This document shows positions 1-20,000 of a DNA stretch of 20,000 nt, piece by piece. The DNA comes from Bilabrum cf. latius. Lineage: Eukaryota. A program made the position numbers and the translations under genes. The number at the start of each line of letters is the position of its first letter. Within the stretch, counting starts at the first letter, position 1. The notes below the pieces were generated by a model, which was given only the letters and a program-made list of their open reading frames with translations, did no database searches and was not told the DNA's origin. The stretch covers positions 917,085 to 937,084 of the forward strand of contig OZ237759.1 in NCBI GenBank assembly GCA_965178125.1. Direction: 5' to 3'.

Positions 1-1797
1 GCCCACTCGCATCGTGCCGCCGTACTGGCAAACCCTTTCCCGAGTCGGTTTGCGGCTGTATCTGCTGCTGGTGGTGGTTCTGCTGCCGCAGCAGGCCCTA
101 GCCCGTCTTCACGCGGAATGTCGTCGTCTCTGCTGTCGAGCTATGAGCGGCTGTCCCAAGCCGTGTCAGTCGACCCAATTCTTGGCCCCATTGACATTGC
201 CCGGGCTCGCCGCGCAACGATGGCAAGCCTTTCATGCTTGCAGTCCTCGGATAACCAGGCCGTCAGCCCGGCAAAAGTGCCAACGGACGCCCAGATCCTG
301 CTTGAGTTTTTAGCCATGGACGTGCCAACTGCATGCGGGTGGACCTGGTGCGAGAGCAGTGACGCTTCTAGTGGATTGGCGCGCCCAACCATACCCTTGG
401 CGAGATGCCCGAAGAGCATTGGCATTTGCCAGCCCACCCGCTTGTCGGACAAACCCATGCTCGATGACTCCTACCACGAGCAAGAGCTGCTCGGGTCAGT
501 GGCAGGTGCACGGCTCTTGGAGATAGAGGGTCGGCTTCGGCGGGTGTCGCTGGCACGCTGCTTGCAGACGAATGCACTGATCAACGGAGCGCCTCTTGCT
601 CCGTCGTTGGCCGCCACAGGGCTGTTGTCCGACTAGGCTGCTGCCGACGTGTTCGGGGGAACTGCCTCTCGTCCAAGCGGGGGTGCATCATGCACGGGGC
701 TGCCACTTGCATCTAAATTTCGAGACCCTGGCTGGCAGTCCATCGTGCAGGTGACTTGGCCCGTCCTCGAGGTGCGAGTACACCAGCACAACGAGTGGGC
801 TGCGGCCCACGAGGCACTGGCAGCCCGCCAGGGCAGCCTGCTCTTGTTTCACGGCACCTCACTGGAGGCCGCCCACTCTGTTATGCAGAATGGGCTGCGG
901 AGCATGAGCGGGACAGCGCACGAGAAAACCGGGGCCGTGCACGGGGACGGCATATACCTGGCTGCACGCCCCCTCATTGCGCTACAGTATGCGAGAGGGC
1001 CGGGCATAGATACAATGGCAAGCATAGAATCAGCATCGACAAGCGATGGCTTGCCTGCGAGGGATTCTACCCGGAAGCGCTGCACTACCTGGGGTCCCCA
1101 TGCATACAGCAGCACAGCTGTTGGTGCTGCACTGGGCGGGGCACCACAAGCAGCAAGTGCACCAAGGGAAGGCTCGTCCCATGGGCCGGCCTCTGGGCGT
1201 GATTCGCTACTACAGAGCCGATGGATGCGCTGCGTATTCGCAGTAGAGGTCGTGCCGGGCACCACGTTGGGATCGGGCGCGCCGCTACACCAAGTGGCCG
1301 GGGAGTCCTCCGCACAGACACAGCTGCCAGGCCTCAAGGCGCCAGACAGGTGTGTACTCGGGACATCAGGTGGTGTGTACGTTCTCAAGGAGCCCCGCCG
1401 TGCGAGAGTCACGCATCTGCTGGTGTTCCACGGCGGCGAGGCGGATGGACCACGGGCCATGACGCACACACAGGTGCGGCAGGTACCGGTAAAATTGCAA
1501 TTTTACCGGTTCGCGGCGACTTAGATAGCAAGCCATGCTGAGCACAAGGATTGTAATGTCGCCACAACCACAGTGGACGTGGTTCAACGCACTAGGGTGC
1601 CAAGAAAGCAGGGCAAGCGGGAGCAAAATGGAGCTCGAAGTGGCAAGCCATCAATGGGTGTTGCAGCCTCAAGCAGACAATACACTGTGGGCCAAGGCAT
1701 AAGTGCCGCTGTGTAGGATCTCGGTATGGACCCTATCAGTGCTGTGGCTATCACAATTGCTATCCTCGCCCTGGCGTTGGTATGGCTTGGTATTTGA
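1..1797 (+). CDS. PARP16-like (PARP6/8/16 clade) mono-ADP-ribosyltransferase with C-terminal tail anchor; 5'-partial; reads through TAG at 634, 1522 and 1714
   Basis: Frame 1 is open from base 1 to TGA 1795-1797 except for three TAGs. Catalytic motifs LFHGTSLEAAHSVMQNGL and HGDGIYLA...ALQYA are present. N-terminal AHSHRAAVLANPFPSRF resembles the PARP16 SYKRDSVLRPFP segment as I recall it. Read-through yields a C-terminal hydrophobic helix (PISAVAITIAILALALVWLGI*), like tail-anchored PARP16. Confidence 0.8.
1485..1510. repeat. Perfect 26-bp palindrome ACCGGTAAAATTGCAATTTTACCGGT
   Basis: The sequence equals its own reverse complement. It lies within a possible 42-nt GT..AG segment (1483-1524). 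Confidence 0.95.
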
Positions 1798-2349: not shown

Positions 2350-5300
2350 ATGGCTGATCCCTCGAACTAGTTGCGAAAGCAGCGACAAATGGCTGCCATC
2401 GCTGTTGAATCCAAGGATGCCGAAGAACGCAAAGAAGACGCAATGCTCCCTAGCGAACGGCCAGATGATTGGAAAGAAGATGAAAACATGGTGAGATCCT
2501 CAGGCGACTCCCGTAGTTATGTTTGTTTTCTATTTTGTTGCGTGACGGCCACGTTCGTGTTCTTGTGGCCACGTCGAAATCGCAGGCAGAGGAAGACCGG
2601 CTGCTGAAAGAGCGGCTTGAGACTGCGCTTGATGTGCTTCTGGATGCGGGCGCATCTATTCCCCTGCGGACTGCTGCGCTTCGCATACTCAGATCGGAGG
2701 TCAGGTCCTCCACCTCAAGCATGACGGCAGTGCCGAAGCCTTTGAAGTACTTGGCCCCATTTTACGAGCGAATTAAGTCCAGCTTCCTATCAATCGATGG
2801 CCCTCGACTTGGTGAGCACAGCTTCGCGCTAGGCAGCGACGAGGACCCCGTAGCGGCAGCAAAGCAGGCAGCTCTGGTCGTTGATGGCGAGGCTTGGGAG
2901 CCCGGGTCCTCCAAGGCCGAATCGGGGGGTCAGGCTGCATCGGGGACAGGTGCCGATGCCTCTAGTGATGAAAAGAAGGGGTCATCCAAGTCTGGCCCCG
3001 GCAAGAAGGCGCCCAAGGGGGCAGCCTCGGTGCAGGAGGCCCTCAAGGAGCCCATTGAGGGCGTCACCGAGACGCAGTTCCGTAGGTCCTTCGCTGACCT
3101 GCTGTCCGTCCTGGCCATGGTGGGTGGGCGGGAAAACAGAGAGTGTCTGCGGTTCAAGATGCTCGGTCACCCCGCGGACGTGGGTCACTGGGGCCACGAG
3201 CACACCCGTGCGCTGGCCGGGGAGATCGCGCATGAGTACCAGGACAGGCTGCAGAAAGCCGAGCAGCAGATGGAGGACGGGGGGGGTGAAGTACCCTCGG
3301 ACATCGATGTGTCCAGCCTGGTGGACGCCAGCGACCTGCTGTCCCTCGCAGCCCGCATCGTGCCGTACAACATGGCGCACAATGCCGAGGCTGAGGCTGT
3401 GGACCTGCTCCTCGAGACGGGGCGGCTCAAGACCCTGCCCTCTTCCGGTTTCATCGACAAGCGGAACGTTGCTAGGGTGTGTTTGTACCTAGTGCGGTGC
3501 GCTGACTATACCGGTGACGAGGAGGAGCGCATCGAGATCCTCTCGGTGGCATATGCCCTTTACCTGCAGTAGGCCAGGCACGCAGATGCCATGCGAGTCG
3601 CCCTGCGCATGGCCGACAAGGGCCGGGTGCTGCGCGCATTCCGGGCGTGCCGGGACAAGGGCGTTCGTCTTCAACTCGGCTTTCTGCTCGGCCAGCACGG
3701 CTTCCGTGCCGTCGGCCACGGCGCGGACGAGGACGAGGACGACGTGGAGGAGCCGGACATCGGTGTCATCGGCGAGGGCGACGATGAGCTGGGCGGCAAG
3801 GGCTCTGCGCAAGCCAGGATGTCTGACCAAGGAGAACCCCCGGCAGCGGTGCCGCTGACCATCTCGCTGAGCAAGACGGAGAGCCTGACCTTCGGTGCAG
3901 GCGTGCTGGACGACGAGCAGGCAGGCGAGCTGGAGGACGACGTGAAGGACGCTATCGGGAACTGCATGCGGCACAAGCACTACCGGGCGCTGGCACAAGA
4001 GATGGGCGTCGACGAGCCAAAGAGCTCGGAGCAGGTGTACAAGACAAAACTTACGGATGAGTCGCGCCTTGCCACCCGAGGCAGGGAGGAACAGGTGCGC
4101 CTGGACAGCGCCCGCGGCAATCTGGCTGCTTCCTACGTGAGCGGGTTCGTGAATCTTTCTCTGGGTAAGGACAAGGTCATCACGCAGAAGGACGAGCACG
4201 GGCGCGAGTGGTGGCAGAGACAGAAGGGCAACGGCATGTCTGCAGCTGCCGCTGGGCACGCGCTGCTGCACCTGTGGGACTACGAGGCCTTGAACGAGGC
4301 CGAGCGGTTCACCAATGCCACCGATGCAGAGGTGCGAGCTGGAGGCGTGCTGGGCTACGGCATCATCCCTTGCTCCATCGCGAGCGAGGATGACGCCAGC
4401 ATCGGGATGCTCGATGAGTACATCGCTGGCGAAGCAGCGGCTGGGAAGAGCCACGCCGAACGATGCGCTGCCCTGCAAGCTCTCGGTCTCGCGTATGCTG
4501 GCACCGGCAGGATGGATGTCGCAGAGATGCTTATCCCATACGTAGAAGACCTTGGCCCCGACATGAAGAACAAGCTAGATTGCGATCTGGTCTGCAACGC
4601 GGCCTTCTCCCTGGGCATGGTGATGGCAGGCACCGCTGACGAGGACGCCACCATTGCACTGCAATCCATCCTGGTAGAGCCCCCGGAGCCGCTGCTGGAG
4701 CACCCTCTCCGGAGGCACCTGGCTGTTGCGCTCGGGTTGGTGTACATGCAGCGAGGAGTAGCGGCCGAGGACGCGCTGGAGATCATGGCTGCCGCTGGAG
4801 AGGAGTCCCCGCTCGGACGCGAGGCTGCACTGCTTCTCCGAGCCTGTGCATTTGCGGGCACCGGCGATGTCCTCCAGGTGCAGCGCATGCTGCATGCTTG
4901 CGCCGAGCACCCCATGAAGGATCGGCTTGCAGCCGTGGCGAAGATGAAGAAGGAGCGCAAGGAGAACCAGGCCGAGCAACAGGCTAGGCAAGCGCAGCGG
5001 GGCGCAAGTTCAGGGGCTGGTGCCGCTGCAGGGGGTGCCGCCGGTGGCGGGCAGGATGACGACGATGAGGAGATGCAGCGTGAGGAGGAGAAGGCTGCAG
5101 ACCCAGCGAAGTATGCATTCTAGACGGTGGCTGCCCTTTGCCTGGGTGTCATTACGATGGGGGAGGGGCTCGGCACTCAGATGCTTGGACGGGTGGTGGA
5201 TCACCTGCTTCAGTACGGCGATCCTGCGGTCAGGAGGGGCGTCCCTCTTGCTCTCGCCATGGCGTATGCTTCCAATGCGGACTACGGCGTGATCGACACG

Positions 5301-6035
5301 CTCTCCAAGCTGTCCCATGACGGCGATGCAGGCACGGCACGGAATGCAGTCCTCGCCATGGGCATCATTGGAGCAGGCACCAACAACAGCAGGCTGGCCG
5401 GCATGCTGCGGCAATTGTCTGTCTTCAACAAGCAAGATGGAGAGTCGCTTTTCATCGTCCGGCTGGCGCAGGGGCTGCTGGCCATGGGACAGGGCCTCGT
5501 CACCGTGAACCCATTCCACAGCGACGGCATGCTGCTCAAGACGCCGGCAGCTGGTGCGCTGCTAGCTGTGGCCCTTTGCGGGCTGGATCTGGACCGTACC
5601 GTGTTGGCGCAGCACCACCTGCAGCTGTTCAACATTGTCCCGGCCATCTCTCCCAGGATGGTGGTGACCCTGGACGCCAGAGATGCCGACGAGATGGTGC
5701 GCGTGGATGTGCGTGTTGGTACTGCGGTGGAGACTGTGGGGCAGGCGGGCCGCCCCAAGACAATCACTGGGTTCCAGACCCACCAGACCCCAGTGCTCCT
5801 GGCTGCCAAGGACCGCGCCGAGATCGCCCCCACAGACCAGTGGGTGCCCCTCACCTCAACGCTGGAAGGTGTGGTGCTGCTGAGGCGGGTAGAGGACGCG
5901 TCCATGGATGACGCGGTGAGGGCAGCTGGCGTGGGTGAAGTGGATGAGGACCAGCGGAAGGCGGTGGAGAACAAGGGTAGCCCCAAGCCGAAGCGGAAGG
6001 CTAGTGTGGCTACTGGTACCGATCCGTACGACTGA
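2350..6035 (+). CDS. RPN1: 26S proteasome regulatory subunit RPN1/PSMD2, join(2350..2490,2586..6035), about 1196 aa; TAG read as sense at 3570 and 5121 (and 2368 if the first ATG is used; alternative start 2389)
   Basis: ORFs 2523-3572, 3591-5123 and 5127-6035 share one frame and are separated only by TAG. RPN1 motifs occur throughout: SMTAVPKPLKYL, WGHEHTRALAGEIA, PYNMAHNAEAEAVDLLLE, GAGTNNSRLAGMLRQL, VRVGTAVETVGQAGRPKTITGFQTHQTPVLL. Ends TGA 6033-6035. Confidence 0.95.
2491..2585 (+). other. Spliceosomal intron (95 nt, phase 0) in RPN1
   Basis: ATG|GTGAGA donor, T-rich interior and CGCAG| acceptor. Splicing joins ...EDENM to AEEDRLLKERLE, matching the ELSEEDKQL-type N-terminal motif of RPN1. 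Confidence 0.85.
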
Positions 6036-6430: not shown

Positions 6431-6640
6431 GTCCCTATCCATGGCCCTCTCGTCCGATCCACCAAACACCACACTGGCTGGCCCCATCCATAGCCTCTTC
6501 CACGTCCCAATCCATGGCCCTCTCGTCCGATCCACCAAACACCACACTGGCTGGCCCCATCCATAGCCTCTTCCACGTCCCCATCCATGCCCCTCTCGTC
6601 CGATCCACCAAACACCACACTGGCTGGCCCCATCCATAGC
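6431..6640. repeat. 73-bp telomere-adjacent tandem repeat, about 2.9 copies
   Basis: TCCATG(G/C)CCCTCTCGTCCGATCCACCAAACACCACACTGGCTGGCCCCATCCATAGC recurs at 6438, 6511 and 6584 (period 73). The third copy is truncated just before the telomeric tract. Confidence 0.95.
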
Positions 6641-6643
6641 TAC

Positions 6644-7186
6644 GGGTTAGGGTTAGGGTTAGGGTTAGGGTTAGGGTTAGGGTTAGGGTTAGGGTTAGGG
6701 TTAGGGTTAGGGTTAGGGTTAGGGTTAGGGTTAGGGTTAGGGTTAGGGTTAGGGTTAGGGTTAGGGTTAGGGTTAGGGTTAGGGTTAGGGTTAGGGTTAG
6801 GGTTAGGGTTAGGGTTAGGGTTAGGGTTAGGGTTAGGGTTAGGGTTAGGGTTAGGGTTAGGGTTAGGGTTAGGGTTAGGGTTAGGGTTAGGGTTAGGGTT
6901 AGGGTTAGGGTTAGGGTTAGGGTTAGGGTTAGGGTTAGGGTTAGGGTTAGGGTTAGGGTTAGGGTTAGGGTTAGGGTTAGGGTTAGGGTTAGGGTTAGGG
7001 TTAGGGTTAGGGTTAGGGTTAGGGTTAGGGTTAGGGTTAGGGTTAGGGTTAGGGTTAGGGTTAGGGTTAGGGTTAGGGTTAGGGTTAGGGTTAGGGTTAG
7101 GGTTAGGGTTAGGGTTAGGGTTAGGGTTAGGGTTAGGGTTAGGGTTAGGGTTAGGGTTAGGGTTAGGGTTAGGGTTAGGGTTAGGG
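6644..7186 (+). repeat. Telomeric repeat tract (TTAGGG)90, internal in this window
   Basis: Uninterrupted TTAGGG from 6647 to 7186 (540 bp). The G-rich strand is +, the orientation of a right-hand chromosome end. Confidence 0.99.
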
Positions 7187-7246
7187 TATCTAATATAAAG
7201 TCAGGGACAGGGTCGGGGAAAAAATATTTTCATCTTCAATATTTGT

Positions 7247-8477
7247 CGAAAAACGACGTGCTACGATCTCGGTAACTACAGGTGATATGAAGACCGTTCA
7301 AACTGCATCGGGACGGCCTGGGGGCACAACATGGGCCAAATGTTCCCCAGGTTCCGTTCTGGCCGCGCGGCGCCGATATGGGTGTATGAAGAATTTCACA
7401 CCGAAAAACGACGTGCTACGATCTCGGCAACTACAGGTGATATGAAGACCGTTCAAACTGCATCGGGACGGCCTGGGGGCACAACATGGGCCAAATGTTC
7501 CCCAGGTTCCGTTCTGGCCGCGCGGCGCCGATATGGGTGTATGAAGAATTTCACACCGAAAAACGACGTGCTACGATCTCGGCAACTACAGGTGATATGA
7601 AGACCGTTCAAACTGCATCGGGACGGCCTGGGGGCACAACATGGGCCAAATGTTCCCCAGGTTCCGTTCTGGCCGCGCGGCGCCGATATGGGTGTATGAA
7701 GAATTTCACACCGAAAAACGACGTGCTACGATCTCGGCAACTACAGGTGATATGAAGACCGTTCAAACTGCATCGGGACGGCCTGGGGGCACAACATGGG
7801 CCAAATGTTCCCCAGGTTCCGTTCTGGCCGCGCGGCGCCGATATGGGTGTATGAAGAATTTCACACCGAAAAACGACGTGCTACGATCTCGGCAACTACA
7901 GGTGATATGAAGACCGTTCAAACTGCATCGGGACGGCCTGGGGGCACAACATGGGCCAAATGTTCCCCAGGTTCCGTTCTGGCCGCGCGGCGCCGATATG
8001 GGTGTATGAAGAATTTCACACCGAAAAACGACGTGCTACGATCTCGGCAACTACAGGTGATATGAAGACCGTTCAAACTGCATCGGGACGGCCTGGGGGC
8101 ACAACATGGGCCAAATGTTCCCCAGGTTCCGTTCTGGCCGCGCGGCGCCGATATGGGTGTATGAAGAATTTCACACCGAAAAACGACGTGCTACGATCTC
8201 GGCAACTACAGGTGATATGAAGACCGTTCAAACTGCATCGGGACGGCCTGGGGGCACAACATGGGCCAAATGTTCCCCAGGTTCCGTTCTGGCCGCGCGG
8301 CGCCGATATGGGTGTATGAAGAATTTCACACCGAAAAACGACGTGCTACGATCTCGGCAACTACAGGTGATATGAAGACCGTTCAAACTGCATCGGGACG
8401 GCCTGGGAGCACAACATGGGCCAAATGTTCCCCAGGTTCCGTTCTGGCCGCGCGGCGCCGATATGGGTGTATGAAGA
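7247..8477. repeat. 155-bp tandem satellite, about 7.9 near-identical copies
   Basis: The unit starts CGAAAAACGACGTGCTACGATCTCGG at 7247, 7402, ... 8332. Identical 89-aa ORFs recur every 155 bp. I noticed single substitutions only in the first copy (GGTAACT) and the last (CCTGGGAGC). Confidence 0.98.
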
Positions 8478-8729: not shown

Positions 8730-10268
8730 TCACTCGTCACCGAAAGCTGCTAGGAGCGCTTCCACAGCGTCGACGTCTGCCGCATTGAGATCTCCTTTCG
8801 CCGTCTTCTCGAGGGCCGTCATCAGGTTTGCGAACATTTCCAACTCGCGGTCCCTCTCTTCAATTGTTGCCTCCACGTCCTCGCGCATGTCTTTGAGAGT
8901 CCGGCTGACGCCCATCGCGCTGTCATCGCAGGCAGCAAGGATGCGGTCCACCAGGTGCCGCTGCTAGTCGGTGAAGGCGGTGTCCTCCATTCCACTGTTG
9001 TTGTCAGAGTCGTCTTGCTGGTTCTGGCCGTCGTTTTCTTCTTCCTCAACCAGCTGCTCCTCATCCTCCTCGTCCTGCTGCTCAAACCCCATTGGAGCGT
9101 CGTCCTCGTCCTGCTCTCCAGCTGCGTCTGCGCGGTACCGACCACCGATGTCCTCTTCATCTTCGTCAGAGTCCTGACGAGGCAGTGATGCTGCTGCTCC
9201 ACTCCTTGCGCCACTTGCTCCCCTTTTCTCCTGTTCAACGGCGCGGCGTGCTCCTCTGCCATTGCCTGGTTGGACGACTGCCGGTCGCTCGGGCTGCCTC
9301 TATGCCCGCGGCTCAGCCTCAGCCGCCTTCTTGCCCTTTGACTCTGCCGGTTGTGCACCCTTGCCCTTCGCCTTGCCCTTCGACTTGCCCTTCGACTTGC
9401 CCTTCGACTTGCCCGCGGCCTTGGTCCTGGCCTTTGCCTTGGCCTTTGCCTTGGCCTTTCTCTCGGCCTCCGCCTCTCGCTTGGCTCTGAGAAGATCGTT
9501 GTTCAGTCGCTCGGTCGATGAGTCGCTGGACTCTGAGCCGTCTGTATCCGGCTCACCCCGTGCTTTCCGGGCCGTGTAGGCCCTCTGGCCCTTCACATTG
9601 TTGTCGGGGTTGTCCTCGTCCTCATCGTCGTCGTCGTCCATGGCACTCCGTTTGCCCTTCCGAGCACGGGATGCCCCACTCGGCGAGGTAGCAGCGGCTC
9701 CCGAAGAGCCACCTTGATCTCCTGCTGCAGCCCCGGCAGAGTCCTTGACTGCCATGTCGAACACCTCTATGAATACAGCCTCCATGCCTCCGCGTGCACG
9801 TACAGAGGCCGTCCCAGCTCCATTATCGCAGATGAACTTGAGCACGTTCTTGAAGCGCCTGCGCAAGCCGTCTAAGCCTGCCTTGAAGAATGGGTTTGTG
9901 GTGGTGGAGTAGCCACACTCGCGCAGAGCCGTGAGAAGCTGCTTCATCTTCCGAAAGCCTGGCCAGTCGGAGCTGCTGGCTGACGCGTCTGGGCACAGGC
10001 GGCTGTTCAGCGCTGTGAGCACGCCAAATGGCACCTCAAACTCATCCAGCGCCAGCATGGCATCCACGCAGGCCCTGATGCCCTCCCTCTTGGTCCCTTC
10101 GTAGTGCTCCGAAGATCCGCAGAGCAGCCCGCAATCCTGGTGGAGGCCCACGAGGGAGATAAGCAGGATCTGCTTGGCCGCGGAAGTGTCGACGCCTGAA
10201 GCCAGGGAGGCCACGACAGGGCGAGATGCCTTGGTGTGCTTGGCGCTGTAGCTCTTTGCGGCGGCCAT
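8730..10268 (-). CDS. Hypothetical protein, about 512 aa (TAG read as sense at 9300-9302 and 8964-8966): N-terminal globular region, Lys/Ala/Gly-rich basic repeats, acidic tracts, C-terminal helical segment
   Basis: ORFs 9300-10415 and 8730-8951 share a frame. The sequence between them is open apart from the two TAGs and encodes a D/E/Q-rich segment. The likely start is ATG 10268 (MAAAKSYSAK) and the end is TGA 8732-8730. Confidence 0.75.
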
Positions 10269-10506
10269 AGTACTCTGCGGTGCCAGGGGAACACGGGTGA
10301 GGTCACGAACAGGTGCTTGGATGCGACAGGGAACACGGGCACGAGACCCAGGGTTACTCCTGGACAAGCTCGAGGGCAAAAAAAAAAAAAAAGGCACCCA
10401 CATAACCCCGCGCACTCGGTCTCAGACCTGGGACCCATGATGTTGGGTCGATCCCCCAGTCGTGGGGGGAACGGACCCCAGCCCAGAAAAAAAATTAAAA
10501 AAAGAT

Positions 10507-10586: not shown

Positions 10587-11160
10587 AACCCACGCGAAAC
10601 CGAAAAAAAATTACAGATTCGCATCAAAAGTGCACGCAACTTGCACTTGTCACGCCGAAACCTACCCGTTCACCCAACGAGCAGCGCGAAATCAGAAACA
10701 CTCATATTGCGCTCCTTGTATTCAATTGCAGAGGCGCATACTTGGCATATAGCTACTATAGCATATTGTGCATACAACCCTAAAGCAAACGTGAGTCAAA
10801 TCGATGGGGTATGCGTGGGGATTGCCTTGCGCAATGCGCTTGCTGCAACGTGGTTCAGACGTTTGCCTCAATTGCGCGACGGCAAGCACTCGTTGGAACT
10901 AATCTCGCGCATATTATCAAATAATATAACATACTGCAAACAATTGCGCGGCGATATATAGGCTGCGCGCCCAATGCTCACTTTGCTTGCGGTAGGTGTG
11001 CTGCGACAACATTTGTGGTGGCCCGGATCAGGTTGCGGAACCTGATGCGCGGCACCGCCGTGACGAGTGCGCCACCAGGGAACAACGCATCGTACCATCA
11101 TACTAATCACATCCCAAGTATATTATATATCCTTGTGGCATCTCTGTCCGCAGTCTGGTC

Positions 11161-14100
11161 ATGGCGCAGTCCACGTACGACGCCACCAAGCATGTGAAGG
11201 CTCTCGATTACCTCCGGGCCTTCCTGGACCGCCGCGCGAAGGGCTACGCCCAGAACCCGCATCGCGTGCGCATCGGAGTCCCAGGGCCACTTCAACCAGG
11301 AGGTGCCGCCCTGCCTGGCCCGCCGGCCGGCGAGGCGCAGGCCCAGATCCCGGCCCAGGTGGGGCCAGCGCCAGGCGGTCATGCCGCCGGGGGGGGCGAT
11401 GCGGCAGGCCTGCCGGCCCCCGTCCCAGCCATCGGCGAGCATGCTCCGGAGCCCCAGCACCAGCAGCAAGAGGGCGCCCAACAACCACCACCGGGTGCAG
11501 CTCTTGCTGCTGGCCAGCAGGCGATGCCCGCCGCCCCGCCCCAGCACCCCGCTGGTCCGGGTGCCAACCTGCCGGTCCCAGGAGGCCTGCAGCCCGAGCC
11601 GCCAGCTGGCGATGCCGACGCCTTCCTCCCGATCCCGGAGCCCCAGCAGGAGCCTGCAGGTGGGCCAGCCGGCGTCGGTCCGGCCCCTCCAGCAGCCGAG
11701 CAGCAGCCAGCTGCCCAGGCTGCCCAGCACCAACTCGTCCCTGGGCCCGTGCCTCTCGCCGAGGTGCCCGTCCTGGCCGGGGTCGGCGCAGGGGAGGACG
11801 CGATGGAGGACGACGAGCCCCCAGAAGCGGTCCAGGCCATCTTCCTCGGGCGCCAAGCCGCCCACGCGGCCACCCAGGCAGCTCGGCAGGCCATGGTCTG
11901 GGATGCTCAGGGCCAGCAACCGCTCTTCGGGGCAGAGGGAGGAGCGCCCGAGCTGCCCATCCCCGGAGTCGTGTTCGCTGCCGGTGCAGAGGCAGCCGGC
12001 GCCCAAGGCGGTGGCGCAGGCCCAGACGCCGGAGGGGAGGTCGGTGCGCCACCCGTGCAGGCGTGGAACCTGGTCGTCGGCGACCCTGGGGGAGCGCATG
12101 GAGAGGAGGCCCTGGCCGTCAACCTCCCGCCCGAGTACCGGTTCGGCATGCACGAGGCGACAGACGACCTCGCGCAGCACCCCATGCTGGCCTACCACAT
12201 ATGGGAGGTGGACGACGAGGCGGTGCAGGCCCTGCAGGGCCTGCTGACCTGCGTTGGCAGGCAGGAGCTGCCTCCCGAGGTGTGGAGGGCGCTCGCACCT
12301 CCAGTGATGGAGACGGTGACCATGCAAGGCATGCGGCGCTGGTGGGCGTACCAGAGGCGCGCCGTTGTCGTCGTGGACAGCCTCCTGCATGCCGAGACTG
12401 ATGCTGCCGGCGTGGAGCAGCGCGCGCAGAGGCGCGGCCGCTTTCTCGTGCAGCTCGTTGGCTGGACTGACATCACCAAGATGCTGGAGAGCGAAGACCT
12501 GAACGAGGAAGGGGCTGCCTTCATTCGGAGCAAGCTGGCTTCGGTGGCGGTCAGCTTCTGGCCGTCTCCGATGCTGGCGGAGCCCGGGCTGCACAGCCAC
12601 AAGCTCTCTCCGCTCCGCACGGAGTGGGATCACTACATCGAGTACAACCGCGTGGACGAGACGGTCTTTGACGCGGTCGGGCTCTCCGAGCAGCCTCCAG
12701 CGTTCATGTACGAGGACGAGGACGAGGACGAGATGGAGGAGGGGCCGGCGGCGCAGCCGGCTGGGGCGGAGGAGCATGCAGAGGGCGACGAAGATGCCGG
12801 GTATGAGGCTGGGGAAGGCGAGTGGGGTAGGGAAGGCCAGTGGGACTCGGACGGAGACCAAGGTGGCGACGAGGAAGCGGATGGTGGAGATCCTGCCGCG
12901 GAGGCTTTCGGAGCTGCGGATGCCGAGCTGGAAGGCGAGCCTGAAGAGGAGCAGGAGGCCGCCCCGGATGTGCTGCGGAACCCACCAGACGGCATGGCGG
13001 CCCCCGTGGCGGTCCGCTCTGAGCTCTCCGATGTCGACGCCATGGAGGTGGTCGGGATCCTATCCGGCGCCGGAGCCTCCCAGGAGGTGCAGACCAGCCC
13101 GTTCATGCTGGCGCTTGGGGGGCCGGTGTCACGGCTCCTGCTGGACGAGCCGCTGGACCAAGCCTACGGCCTCATCGACGTGCTGATTGGAGCCGACTCG
13201 GCGACGCAGGATGGGGTCCTCTGCGGGCGCAGGGGTCTGCAGAGGGACGGGGGGCAGATCAGGGTGCAGTCGGCCACGCAGCAGCACCAGCGCACCGAGG
13301 TGGACACGAGCGGCTCATCCAGGCCCCGGCTCGGCTACAGCATCGTCTTCAACCGGCACATCCCCACGTAGGAGCGGGACAATCCCGGCACGCCGAGGAG
13401 TCACGGCGCGTACTACTCACCCCGCATCGACGTCGCGTACCTTGGACCGATGGGGATCCAGAACATGGGCGTGGATTCGGAGCCGCTGCGGCTGCACCGC
13501 ATCCATCACGCTCTCCCTGCACCAGCAGGGGACCACGTGACCGTCCAATCCCTGACATCGGACGTTCGAAGTGCAGCTCGTCGCTTCCACCAGAGCAGCG
13601 AGGAGGTTGGGGTGCTAGAGGAAGCTGAAGCGATCCTGGAGGGAAGCACCGGCACAGTGCGAGGCAATGCCAGGGCCGTGAAATCCGCACGTGCCACGCT
13701 CCGCAAGTACCTCACGATGATGCCCAAACAGCGCGGGGTCGGATCTGGCGACGTCTCGGTCTCTGTCCTCCTGGCGGGGGCGGCTGAGGTGCGAGTCGTG
13801 CTACCGGAGGGCGGTGTGGCTCGGGTGTTTGGCGTTGCTCACGCAGGGTCTGAGGAAGAGCAGGCCTCCTTGCGCACACTCGCGAGGCGCTGGAACATCC
13901 GGCGACTGGAGGGAATGCGCCTCGTTGGAACGCCGTTCGACCAGGCCGTGCAGTCGCTCCTGATTGGCATCGCAGGTGCCATCAACTACGTGAGAGAGAA
14001 GGAGGGGTACCGCGGGCCCGAGTTCATGGTGCAGTCGACCCCGAGGACTGCCACGACGGCGCAGGGACTCTCCGCATCGTACGCGATTGTAGCAACCGAC

Positions 14101-17100
14101 TCGCCCGTCGGTGTCTCTCGCGGAAGCACCCACACCGAGACTTTGAGTCCTGGAGACCGTCACATGGGCGTGCGTGGGACTGCTGAGCCTGATGGCGGGC
14201 ATCGCATCAGGCCCGGGTACTTCCTGTGCGAAGTGCTCCGGGTTCTGAGCGAGGACGCGGCCCTGCATCCCACCCAGGTCAGCCATCTGCCCCACAGGCT
14301 GAGATATCCTGACGGACTGAAGATCCAAGGGGTCCTGGCGTGCTCGATCTACCGAATCCTGGTCGTCGGGGGCCAGAACCAGGCGGCGGTTGCTGTGATG
14401 CGATCCCTGATGCTGCGACAGGCTCCGGCCGCTGGTGAGCCTGAGGAGGACCCTCCGGACCACGGCGGGCACCCTGTAGTGTTCGTCGACCCTCTTGCCG
14501 CCGGGAGGGACGCCATCCGCATGGCGACGGAGCTCGGGCAACATCGACCAGAGATCCAGTGCCAGGACCCCGTGTTGCTCTCCATGGACCTGGGCTTCAT
14601 GGCAGGTGGCGGCGACATGCACGCTGCGTTTCCGAGCGTGCTGGGCCTGCGTCATGCCATGGCACTTGCGGGTGATGCCGTGGCCGACATCTCCTCCGTA
14701 CCGGGCTTCGGACAGGTGGGGAGCTAGTTCGTCTTCCCAATGCAAGTGGATGAAGAGAACGTGAACTGCCTGCTCATGAGCCCATCTCTGGGCAGTGTGC
14801 AGTTCAGGGCTCGTGCCAGAGGCGATACGCAAGCTGCCATGACTAAGCATGACTTTCAGCACGTGGCTGAGCTGGTATCGCAGGCCACCCGCGAGCGGGA
14901 CGACGAGTTTGTTCGTAAGCTCTTGCCCGCGATGCTGAGCGTATCTCACGGGGTGCAGATGTACGTCGAGCAGGCGTTCCGCTCCACGAGGCTCAGCGGC
15001 GACAGTCACCAACGGCTTGGGTCTCGGCTGTATGGTGAGCTGGAGCGATGCAGGCAGCAGGTTCCAAAGGTGGGGCGGGCTGCTGCGGCCACCATGGCAA
15101 GGGTTGCGCACGACGAGGCCACCGAGATCGCGTGTCGCAGGTTGCAGGCTATAGGTGACGCTCGAGCATCGCTTCGCGTCGAATTCAGCATGGCAGGGCC
15201 CGGTCTTCTGATGGGACTAGCAATGGCGCTGGGACTTGAGGACGGACACGCCAGTCTCGTGGATGCCCTGGCGGAAGGAACGTCGACAGTTCGAGCGCCC
15301 TTCTTTGACACAGTTGCTGCCATGGTGCAGCGGGAGGTGGCGCATGCCGTCACGCGGGACTTGGAGGAGGCGGTCCGAGGGGCCATGGCTACGGCGGCCA
15401 GTATCGAGATAAAGGCTATGGCGGCTGAGCAGGTGTCGGACGGTTTAGCTGTTCAGCAGGCAGTCGCAGGGGAGCTGCGCATGCTTGCGCTGGATGTGTC
15501 GCAGATGGTGGCCCCCACCCAGACTGGGCAAGCCATGACCCGGTCCATCATGGAGTCCGTCCTTCCGCGTCCCGAGGCCAGACTGCGGCAGGCCATCTGG
15601 CATGTGGCGGATGGCACCATTGCGGACCGACGGCGAACGGTGGAGAAGGATCCACGCAACTGGAACGGCCAGTGCCGCGTAGCCCAGGCAACTCTGGCTA
15701 TGGTGCTTCAGGTTGTGACCAGGGGCGGGGTGAGGGAGATCACGGATCCGGAGGCCCGCTCTCCAGAGGTGCTTCCGAAGCTGCTGCACGGCGTAGCGTC
15801 ACTCATCGTGGTGGGTGTGCAGTCGGCCTCGCTCATTGCCTGCACGGGGTAGCGACCACTCGCGGTAACACGGGCTGACAGCCGGCGCCACGTTGTCGGA
15901 TTCGCCGCTGGGACTGAGTCTCCCAAGGACTGCGCCTTGCTGGATCTGAGGTCGTTCCTGCAGAGCGGCAGTGACGATCCCTGCGTGGAGCTCGGCCGGG
16001 TCATTGGTCGAATGCTGCACCCGGCCTTGGTGTCTGCCGTGCTGATCAACGCACCAGGCCCTCTACTGACTGCTGTAGTGCGAATCAGCCCAGGGAGGCT
16101 TGCGTCCGAGGTGGTCATGCAGCTCGAGAATACCGTGGCTCTGACGCAGAGCATTGAGCAGCAGGCCAAAGCGGCCACCTTACTGGGAGCTCCAGCCTCG
16201 CTGATGCACGAGACCATGAGAAACCTGGGAGTAACGCTCGAGGACATGGTCTCCGCGCTCCAGAAGGCGTACGAGGACGTTCCCTTGGCGGCAATTGGTG
16301 CATTTGCGGCCATGGTGAGAGGAGGCAAGAACGAGAAGTTTCCGCATGGGACGGCGATTCCGGTGAACACCCCTGGTGTGCCATTTCCGCTAGCGCTGTG
16401 TCTTACCGGCTAGGATGACGACGGACGGTTCAGGCTAGGGTCGCTCCCGCTGGGCGGAGTGCCGGATACCATAAGGGTGGATGGGACCCAGTCTGCCTCC
16501 CCACTGCAGCTGATGCTTGCTGGCAGGGCGGCCACCGTGCTACACGACAACCTGCTCCAGATTGCTATCGGCACGGTCCGTCGGCAGGGCCGTTTGGTCA
16601 AGGAAGAGGAACTCGACTTGGTTCGCAGGGGCACGCACGCAGGGGAGCGCTTGACGCTGGCGCTGCCGGGTTCGACGCAAGAGGCTGCCCGTGTCGACAG
16701 CCTCACCCGAGCTGCAGTCTTGGCAGCCATGCGGCGGATCTAGAAGTTCAGATATATGAGCACTTCCGTCTACGACAGGACCAGGCGACTGCTTCGTGCA
16801 CGGTAGGTGGAGCCTTGGGATGCGCTTGACGTGGAGGATATGCGGAGGCCCTGGCGGGACTAGTTCCGCTTGCCATTGGAGGAAGGTACCATCGGTGAGA
16901 GTACTGCAGCGGTACTTAGGCGTGGAAGCTTCGAGACCAGACGGGCTAGCCTTGCGCTGATGGGCATCGCCACGGTGGCGGGTCGGGCTTGCCAGGAGGA
17001 GGCATAGCAGCCCGTAGTGCGAGCAACACGTTTGGTAGTAGGGTGGTTGAGGTCCGATGTCTCTGACGCAATGGTCCTGGACGATGGAAGCGAACAGCGT

Positions 17101-18147
17101 CAAGCTGCCGTCAACGCTGCTGCAGGGGCCGAGATGCTCCTCACGGAACTGTGTGGTGTCGAGACCGTGAAGCTCTTGGCCAAGGTGCAAGCGCTCATGG
17201 ACCGATCCGAGGCTGCACATCTGCGCCACAGAGACGAAATTATGCATGGAGATCTGCCGGAGACGAACAGCCGGCAAGAGCGCGTAGGTTTTCGTATCGG
17301 CTGTGCAATCGCGGCAAGTAGAGGGCAAGAGGCTTTGGAGAAGCTGAGGAGACTCTCATCGCTGGTCCGGATGGCTCGACGGGTGGTGAAGACAGCTCGC
17401 AATGCTTTGCACGGCGGTGCAAGTTGTCACGCAGTGCTTGCCATGGTTCGTGCGTCCATTGGACGGGTCCGAGGCCTACGAAATGCCGTGGAGCGAGCGC
17501 GTGAGTTGGCTGGAGCTGCCGAGGTCGAAGGGGAAGGAGCAGCGGAGCGGCTGGGGAGACTGGGTGCTCTCGGATGGCAGGCCATCCAAGCGGAGCGAGT
17601 TCGTCTGGTGGTGCAAGCAGCTAGAGGAGCCGCTCGCTTGTACAGGCGTAGTCGGACATATCCAGTTGGATCCGCCAGATAGAAGGTCTGCCTGCGAGGT
17701 ACGCTGCTTCTGACGGGGTTTGTCAGATCCTAGCGACATCCCTTTGCAGTAGAGCCCAGTCCTTTGGCACGGACGCTTGCTGGGTGGAGCGTGGTGCAGG
17801 AGTGGAAGCATGTGTTGCGCCAGCACTCTTTGTTGATGGGCCTGGGTGTGGGACTTGGCGATGAAGACGAGCGGGTGCAGTAGGTGTGCCAGACGGTGTT
17901 TCGTGCCAACGACGATCCTATGGAGGTAGAATTGGCCGAGGGGCCCGGCAACTGGAGTCCTGCCGAGATCAGTGCATTTAAAGCAGCGGATGTCTGGGGA
18001 GAGGACCAAGGGAAGATGGCCCTGTCCATTGGAAAGGTCTAGGGCTTGCTCGCATCATGGCGGAGAACAGCGAAGCATCTTCAAGAGACCGCTCAAGCTG
18101 ATGGCCGCGGAAAGGGCAGGATGCAGCTCTAGCACATGTTCGGTTGA
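11161..18147 (+). CDS. Giant hypothetical protein, 2328 aa, with 13 in-frame TAG codons; Pro/Gln/Ala/Gly-rich N-terminus, acidic linker, long C-terminal body of unrecognised family
   Basis: ORFs starting 11161, 13450, 14740, 15937, 16459 and 17017 are all in frame 1. Manual translation of the gaps and the 3' extension shows only TAG (13369, 14725, 15850, 16411, 16741, 16804, 16861, 17005, 17680, 17731, 17881, 18040, 18130) until TGA 18145-18147. Confidence 0.85.
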
Positions 18148-18264: not shown

Positions 18265-20000
18265 GACCCACACCACGCCCATCCTACAACCGCGATGAGA
18301 CATCCACACACCGGAATGAGACCTGCCACATTGAGGTCACATCTGGTGGATTAGAATGGTCCGTGTCGGGCATCCTTAGCTCGCAGATGCGCCATTGCTG
18401 CCGCAGGATAGGAATGAAGGAGCTTGGCCCCGAAAACGTGGTGGATTTTTTTCTCCCATTTCAGTAAACCAAGTACGCTAAATGATTAAATACAATAATA
18501 CAAGCTCACGAATTAGCTAATCGGATTTGAAATTCCCCCACAAAGGGGAAAGGTTAGGAATAGGGTTTATGTCATAGACCGGTGAGATTGAGACTTGGTT
18601 GAAAGATTTGAAACTCCGAGTTATTCCAGGGAACATCGTACATAGGTGCATAGACATCATGTGGAAAGTGTAAGGCATTGGAAATGTTTCCCGGCTGAGA
18701 AAACATGGATCAAAGATTCGGGTTAGGGCTCGTATTTGTGTGGCGTTACACTTGGTAGGGAACAAGCAATGTTGTGTCGTCATGATACACTTGGGACAAT
18801 GTCAAGTACCATCAAGCACAAGTGTATGCGATTTGAAGACATTGCATCCATAAGTTGCCGCGATATTGAAGATCAAAGTTCTGAAGGTTAGGGTTAGGGT
18901 TAGGGTTTTCCCTGAGGGGCGTGCATTAGCTGTGAATGAGATTTTTTTGATTTCTAGGGTTCATTTGCACTTTGAATCATCATGTATTATGTGTGTGAAG
19001 TTTGGAGATTGGCTGACATACAGTTATTGAGCACTTGAGCAATACAAGTAGTTGCCTTTGCTCATCTGGTCGGCGCCACGCCCACAGTGACTGGGCGACT
19101 GGCGACCCACACCACGCCCATCCTACAACCGCGATGAGACATCCACACACCGGAATGAGACCTGCCACATTGAGGTCACATCTGGTGGATTAGAATGGTC
19201 CGTGTCGGGCATCCTTAGCTCGCAGATGCGCCATTGCTGCCGCAGGATAGGAATGAAGGAGCTTGGCCCCGAAAACGTGGTGGATTTTTTTCTCCCATTT
19301 CAGTAAACCAAGTACGCTAAATGATTAAATACAATAATACAAGCTCACGAATTAGCTAATCGGATTTGAAATTCCCCCACAAAGGGGAAAGGTTAGGAAT
19401 AGGGTTTATGTCATAGACCGGTGAGATTGAGACTTGGTTGAAAGATTTGAAACTCCGAGTTATTCCAGGGAACATCGTACATAGGTGCATAGACATCATG
19501 TGGAAAGTGTAAGGCATTGGAAATGTTTCCCGGCTGAGAAAACATGGATCAAAGATTCGGGTTAGGGCTCGTATTTGTGTGGCGTTACACTTGGTAGGGA
19601 ACAAGCAATGTTGTGTCGTCATGATACACTTGGGACAATGTCAAGTACCATCAAGCACAAGTGTATGCGATTTGAAGACATTGCATCCATAAGTTGCCGC
19701 GATATTGAAGATCAAAGTTCTGAAGGTTAGGGTTAGGGTTAGGGTTTTCCCTGAGGGGCGTGCATTAGCTGTGAATGAGATTTTTTTGATTTCTAGGGTT
19801 CATTTGCACTTTGAATCATCATGTATTATGTGTGTGAAGTTTGGAGATTGGCTGACATACAGTTATTGAGCACTTGAGCAATACAAGTAGTTGCCTTTGC
19901 TCATCTGGTCGGCGCCACGCCCACAGTGACTGGGCGACTGGCGACCCACACCACGCCCATCCTACAACCGCGATGAGACATCCACACACCGGAATGAGAC
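18265..20000. repeat. 839-bp tandem repeat (2 full copies plus the start of a third, running off the window) containing short telomere-like motifs
   Basis: GACCCACACCACGCCCATCC starts at 18265, 19104 and 19943. Identical ORFs occur at 18517 and 19356. Each unit has (TTAGGG)3 (18888-18905 and 19727-19744). Confidence 0.97.

Follow-up and report, generated by a model that had tools for sequence, protein, structure and literature searches.

We analyzed a 20,000-nucleotide (20-kb) stretch of DNA, positions 917,085 to 937,084 of contig OZ237759.1 (hereafter the window), in which the triplet TAG lies inside four genes whose reading frames are open and conserved beyond it; where the residue at this codon is readable, it is glutamine (Gln). 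The window is GC-rich, with a G+C content (GC) of ~0.6 within its genes. Its long frames are interrupted when the standard code is applied; reading TAG alone as a sense codon yields three long plus-strand frames (1-1797, 2484-6035, and 11107-18147), and a 563-codon minus-strand frame (8730-10421) likewise opens when TAG is read as sense. The four genes, with the two in-frame TAG codons of RPN1 on lines of their own, are as follows.

1 to 1797, plus strand: 3' part of a PARP-like gene with an ADP-ribosyltransferase domain (PF00644), extending beyond the window start, with TAG codons at 634, 1522, and 1714 and a TGA end
2350 to 6035, plus strand: RPN1/PSMD2 gene, identified by Pfam and PDB matches, with exon 2 at 2586-6035 and a TGA end
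3570 to 3572, plus strand: in-frame TAG in RPN1, in a variable column with Gln more frequent than any other residue; CAG precedes
5121 to 5123, plus strand: in-frame TAG in RPN1, in a near-invariant Gln column
8730 to 10268, minus strand: gene for an acidic, lysine-rich low-complexity protein, with TAG codons at 9302-9300 and 8966-8964 and a TGA end
11161 to 18147, plus strand: 2328-codon gene without a known family, with 13 in-frame TAG codons and a TGA end

Across these four gene models, which comprise 4594 codons, there are 20 in-frame TAG codons, no TAA, and no internal TGA, and all four genes terminate with TGA. The two off frames of the three plus-strand open reading frames (ORFs) contain 136 TGA, 47 TAG, and 14 TAA triplets, TGA being the commonest by far. 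Interruptions that consist of TAG alone would not be expected from decay or sequencing errors. Local GC, taken over 30 nucleotides on either side, is 0.52-0.68 at 19 of the 20 coding TAGs, as in ordinary exons; short in-frame introns hiding the coding TAGs were considered, and were rejected by this local GC and by the positions of GTGAG.

RPN1/PSMD2 is a non-ATPase subunit of the 26S proteasome regulatory particle, and its gene is essential and normally single-copy. The 1183-codon ORF at 2484-6035 encodes this protein, as identified by (i) Pfam matches to RPN1_RPN2_N (PF17781, E 4.9e-80), PC repeats (PF01851, E 1.6e-12), and RPN1_C (PF18051, E 1e-23), as well as by (ii) HMMER matches to the PDB chains of human PSMD2 (E 2.2e-167) and yeast RPN1 (E 5.6e-141). 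Its domains are complete and in order, similarity to the solved RPN1 chains spans the full length, and the alignment is collinear with the human, plant, and yeast chains. Apart from the two TAGs the gene is intact, with homology on both sides of each. It differs from human PSMD2 by three low-complexity insertions, which lie between HMMER blocks at approximately residues 101-187, 419-483, and 828-858 of P0001, and it has two UAG codons.

No ATG precedes the homologous part in the exon-2 frame. Exon 1, which we read from the sequence with its splice sites, extends from the ATG at 2350 (or the ATG at 2383) to 2490, and is followed by a putative intron at 2491-2585 (95 nucleotides, GTGAG...CAG, phase 0) that would join it to the RPN1 frame. 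Given this intron, the third TAG of the raw RPN1 ORF, at 2514, would be intronic and thus not a coding TAG. Whether a further TAG, at 2368, is coding depends on which of the two candidate starts on either side of it is used; it would be a seventh-codon glutamine if translation begins at 2350.

The identity of the inserted amino acid was examined in the RPN1 alignment columns, for which the RPN1 protein (P0004) was translated with TAG as a neutral X and aligned by MAFFT with 119 of its best 120 relatives, the near-identical copy P0005 being excluded from the column counts. At TAG 5121, the 119 orthologues comprise 116 with Gln, two with His, and one with a gap; none has Leu, Glu, Lys, Tyr, Trp, or Ser. 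With the codon still entered as X, HMMER aligns this site to Gln in the HQGVAVLG stretch of human PSMD2. The column at TAG 3570 is mixed (Q 38, V 26, F 14, L 12, H 7, M 7, R 5, E 4, N 3, S 1, and two gaps, n=119), with Gln as the commonest residue and Phe at the aligned position in human PSMD2. These results bear out a preliminary description of the window, which had (i) quoted an RPN1 peptide containing the TAG, now located at 5121-5123 in the frame of the ORF at 2484-6035, (ii) aligned this TAG to a human Gln using a PSMD2 string that agrees with the human sequence printed by HMMER, (iii) placed TAG 3570 at a variable position, and (iv) proposed reading the orthologue column at the RPN1 TAG as a check.

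When column frequencies at the two RPN1 sites were multiplied for each of the 20 amino acids, Gln received 0.987, His 0.004, and Val 0.003, values that serve as a guide only, since the orthologues are related to one another. Columns in which Gln is the commonest residue are scarce (22 of 817 residue-dominated columns), and both TAGs would fall in such columns by chance with a probability of ~0.0007. Furthermore, among the other columns in which at least 95% of the orthologues share one residue, the window RPN1 carries the dominant residue in 90 of 99, or roughly nine out of ten.

The 2328-codon gene contains the largest share of the coding TAGs, at 13369, 14725, 15850, 16411, 16741, 16804, 16861, 17005, 17680, 17731, 17881, 18040, and 18130. 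A homologue search at near full length found none, and a search at shorter length returned near-identical fragments only; in the absence of distant orthologues, the 13 TAG columns of this protein are therefore unreadable by alignment. When its last 1200 residues (TAG as X) were searched with HMMER against all libraries, only six proteins matched, all of them 97-99% identical fragments (P0128 to P0133), which are relatives of window positions 13600-18040. The listed source of five of these fragments is a single 12766-base contig, and that of P0133 is a contig of equal size. Five of the six end exactly one residue before the window TAGs at 14725, 16411, 16741, 17680, and 18040, and the remaining one ends after a divergence of frame. 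The gene caller applied to that assembly thus took TAG for a stop, and these TAGs are shared by an independent assembly. As the stops stand at the same five sites, with the protein continuing beyond them, errors specific to the window are ruled out and pseudogenes are very unlikely.

One of these fragments, P0128, which is identical to the window protein at 296 of 300 residues, spans the window TAG at 15850, has Gln there, and ends at a shared TAG. Since it was called with TAG as a stop and yet reads Gln at this site, the sister strain has CAA or CAG there. This points to an exchange between TAG and CAR among strains, through a single C/T difference. The clusters of five of the fragments are single-member, and no further strain variants were obtained from them. 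A second near-identical protein, P0005, comes from a different source, matches the window RPN1 at 854 of 863 aligned residues (99%), reads Gln where the window RPN1 has its two TAGs, and stops immediately ahead of the window CAG at 5622. Two accounts fit it equally well: it may be a standard-code call from a strain with CAR at both RPN1 sites and a TAG at the equivalent of 5622, or it may have been translated with a code table in which TAG is Gln, from a contig that ends there.

Two minor features of the public fragments may be recorded here. At window positions ~15412-15511 (residues 1418-1450 of the 2328-residue protein), the frame of the related contig departs from that of the window for ~33 codons, such that P0130 ends in 25 unrelated residues and P0128 starts with six unrelated residues before rejoining the window protein; the two strains may differ here by a compensated pair of insertions or deletions, or one of the two assemblies may be in error. 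In addition, the public fragments, some of which have GTG starts given as Met, derive from gene calls that used standard or bacterial stops.

We therefore regard the window as nuclear DNA of a GC-rich protist, with an RPN1 that groups with Cafeteria, in which UAG is a sense codon for Gln, UGA terminates translation, and UAA is probably not reassigned, and we give this reading a probability of roughly 0.85. On the same reading, UAG would be an ordinary sense codon that makes up ~8% of the Gln codons in the window. The assignment of UAG to glutamine, already proposed in the preliminary description, is supported both by the RPN1 columns and by the Gln at the TAG 15850 site in the near-identical contig.

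Several observations weigh against this interpretation or limit its basis. Alignable orthologues cover just two of the TAGs, and strong conservation is confined to one of these two columns; at the other, TAG 3570, Cafeteria, the closest named relative, has Asn, and a further related sequence has Ser. Moreover, only 7 of the 46 CAG or CAA glutamines of RPN1 itself fall in columns where Gln is commonest, so most Gln codons are uninformative and two sites make a small sample. The glutamines of P0005 are ambiguous, being uninformative if its caller read TAG as Gln. Four TGA ends are too few to exclude occasional termination at UAG, and TAG 18130, five codons before the TGA of the 2328-codon gene, could itself be a stop. 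The earlier argument from four TAGs adjoining a CAG codon holds as an observation, as all four pairs exist (CAG precedes TAG at 3570 and 17881, and follows it at 17005 and, on the minus strand, at 8964-8966), but it is weak as evidence: 4 of 20 TAGs adjoin CAG against 1.46 expected from 3000 within-gene codon shuffles, and the probability of at least four is 0.056, which is non-significant. Finally, with regard to mechanism, ARAGORN detected no tRNA genes in the 20-kb window, Rfam gave no match there, and no eRF1 gene lies within it.

The code known as NCBI table 6, in which UAA and UAG both encode Gln, is widespread, occurring in many ciliates, ulvophycean green algae, hexamitin diplomonads, Streblomastix, and Amoeboaphelidium. 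It shares UAG as Gln and UGA as stop with the window, and the window genes could follow it if TAA were missing through GC-richness. This type is the commonest reassignment from stop to Gln (PMC5304391, PMC11687900), and TAA ends none of the four genes, hence is not shown to be a stop here. Against it stands the absence of in-frame TAA from 4594 codons: given 20 TAG to 165 CAG, the 51 CAA codons would predict ~6.2 TAA if TAA encoded Gln, and none is seen (Poisson P = 0.002), although the proportional model is crude and GC bias weakens the calculation. On account of this deficit we lean toward a change in UAG only, with UAA probably retained outside the reassignment, and consider a table 6 code unlikely.

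A second alternative is that UAG has a dual, context-dependent meaning, such that a suppressor or near-cognate tRNA inserts Gln at UAG within genes, while UAG still ends some genes. Codes with dual meanings are described for Condylostoma, Parduczia, and Blastocrithidia (PMC5304391), and the few visible gene ends, together with the position of TAG 18130, would accommodate such a code. However, TGA is used at all four ends, and the density of in-frame TAG (20 in 4594 codons) is close to that in the off frames (47 in ~8260), which suggests little selection against internal TAG. A dual meaning thus appears improbable.

That UAG encodes an amino acid other than Gln (Leu, as in the rhizarian exLh code, or Glu, Lys, Tyr, Trp, or Ser) is, in our judgment, very improbable. 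Such codes do exist (PMC5304391, PMC11687900), the exLh code being one in which UAG alone is likewise reassigned (PMC5304391), and the variable site at 3570 admits Val, Phe, and Leu as well as Gln. Nevertheless, Leu is found in 12 of 119 orthologues at that site and in none at TAG 5121, where the other candidate residues are also lacking. An amino acid other than Gln at TAG 5121 would further require a departure from a conserved column in a protein that otherwise fits 90 of 99 comparable columns, and it would be at odds with the Gln that a near-identical strain has at TAG 15850.

Editing of U to C in the mRNA would turn TAG into CAG and leave the code itself standard, and the Gln residues of P0005 at both RPN1 TAG sites would fit this if P0005 derived from a transcript of the same organism. 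However, P0005 differs from the window at 9 of 863 residues through mixed changes (E/K, G/D, A/G, K/R, and D/E), which looks like strain divergence, and we know of no established mechanism by which nuclear mRNAs would be systematically edited from U to C in such a case; we give this account hardly any credence. That TAG is still only a stop, with the interruptions due to pseudogenes, strain-specific nonsense mutations, or sequencing errors, accords with the public calls that break the 2328-codon gene into six fragments, but it can be dismissed for practical purposes, because over 4594 codons the interruptions are never TGA or TAA, five of the TAGs are found again, at the same positions, in an independent contig whose protein is 97-99% identical before and after them, and RPN1 is conserved past both of its TAGs.

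Since the window contains neither a tRNA gene nor an eRF1 gene, the mechanism behind a Gln-encoding UAG is one that we infer from known cases. In organisms where UAG encodes Gln, a tRNA-Gln with anticodon CUA is described that is one mutation away from tRNA-Gln(CUG), and their eRF1 has altered stop-recognition motifs (GTS, NIKS, and YxCxxxF; PMC5304391). By analogy, (i) a tRNA-Gln(CUA), one base from tRNA-Gln(CUG), would decode UAG in this organism, (ii) recognition of UAG by eRF1 may have been lost or weakened, and (iii) single C-to-T changes would turn CAG codons into new TAG codons, with drift in the reverse direction as well.

The reassignment of UAG to Gln is as such already known, and is found here in a further organism. 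A change in UAG only, with UAA untouched, has long been considered constrained and is documented in few lineages (PMC5304391, PMC11687900). A close documented example is Iotanema spirale, in which UAG alone encodes Gln and both UAA and UGA are stops (Panek et al. 2017, PMC5304391). As in the window, UAG occurs there in frame at conserved Gln positions, and in-frame UAA and UGA are lacking; UAG is unseen as a terminator in Iotanema and also at the gene ends of the window, which at four are too few to decide its role. Iotanema is an AT-leaning metamonad whose main stop is UAA, in 104 of 119 complete transcripts (PMC5304391), whereas the window is GC-rich, groups with Cafeteria, and uses UGA at four of four ends; furthermore, the Iotanema case is built on 126-730 genes (PMC5304391), whereas the present one is built on four, in which use of UAA as a stop is not seen. 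In ciliates, UAG-only reassignment to Gln is described for Protocruzia tuzeti and two phyllopharyngean lineages (PMC11687900); the change is the same, decoupled from UAA, but the lineage (Alveolata, Ciliophora) is unrelated. Codes of the Condylostoma, Blastocrithidia, and Amoebophrya types, in which all three stops serve as sense codons, are unlike the code of the window, where neither TGA nor TAA occurs inside a gene.

Most known UAG-only cases are AT-rich. With respect to the position of the present one, the best named RPN1 matches among those listed are from Cafeteria roenbergensis, with 60% identity over the C-terminal region of the query. In a 33-sequence maximum-likelihood RPN1 tree, the window groups with Cafeteria and one further sequence with a Shimodaira-Hasegawa-like approximate likelihood ratio (SH-aLRT) support of 99; the window branch is long (0.96), and the Cafeteria rows were flagged for compositional bias. 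Our best guess from this one gene is a distant Cafeteria-like stramenopile. A full-text literature search, which covered neither subscription papers nor supplements, found no nuclear code change in a stramenopile or bicosoecid, returning organellar or unrelated papers only; its lone match to a stramenopile review was a reference-list entry on mitochondrial codes. We tentatively suggest, at somewhat less than even odds, that this is the first nuclear code change in a stramenopile, in a GC-rich, Cafeteria-related flagellate in which UAG alone encodes Gln, UGA terminates, and the reassignment is so far complete that TAG and CAG interchange freely between closely related strains.

Gene callers that apply the standard code fragment the genes of this organism, as illustrated by the 2328-residue gene, which is publicly held as six pieces, five of them ending at a TAG. 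Counts of "proteins" for this lineage in public collections are thus inflated and the proteins truncated, and correct annotation, orthology, and phylogenomics for the lineage require that TAG be translated as Gln. If the reading proposed here is true, it adds another independent origin of the rare UAG-only variant, in a different supergroup and in a genome that is GC-rich and has UGA as its stop. It would, moreover, provide a natural experiment on changes in eRF1 and tRNA-Gln, and on whether UAG is more readily given up as a stop when GC pressure acts on stop usage.

Among the other genes of the window, the PARP-like gene has a partial PF00644 match (catalytic domain) at residues 259-332, scoring 33 bits against a cutoff of 26.7. 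Its protein has a hydrophobic C-terminal tail right before the TGA, which resembles that of a tail-anchored protein; the last 300 nucleotides of the gene have a lower GC and contain two of its three TAGs. A Pfam scan assigned no family to the acidic minus-strand protein, and none to the 2328-residue protein. The latter is Pro/Ala/Gln-rich in its N-terminal third and, with near-identical fragments as its sole relatives in both protein collections, is a lineage-specific orphan.

The window also contains several repeats. Positions 6644-7187, ~600 nucleotides past the RPN1 stop, are an array of 90.7 copies of GGGTTA, the telomere unit TTAGGG, without a mismatch (100% matches). Its G-rich strand is on the plus strand and 12.8 kb more sequence follows it; the array could be interstitial telomeric sequence, or the assembler could have joined separate pieces at this point. 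It is flanked by a 73-bp repeat at 6431-6640 (2.9 copies, 97%) and by a 155-bp satellite at 7247-8477 (7.9 copies, 99%), an arrangement that looks like subtelomeric architecture, and the six-frame ORFs in these flanking repeats are the repeat read in frame. A further repeat, with a spacing of 839 nucleotides and at least two copies that are 100% identical over 300 nucleotides, lies at 18265-20000; judging by 21-bp sub-repeats at 18280, 19119, and 19958, there may be a third copy that runs beyond the window end.

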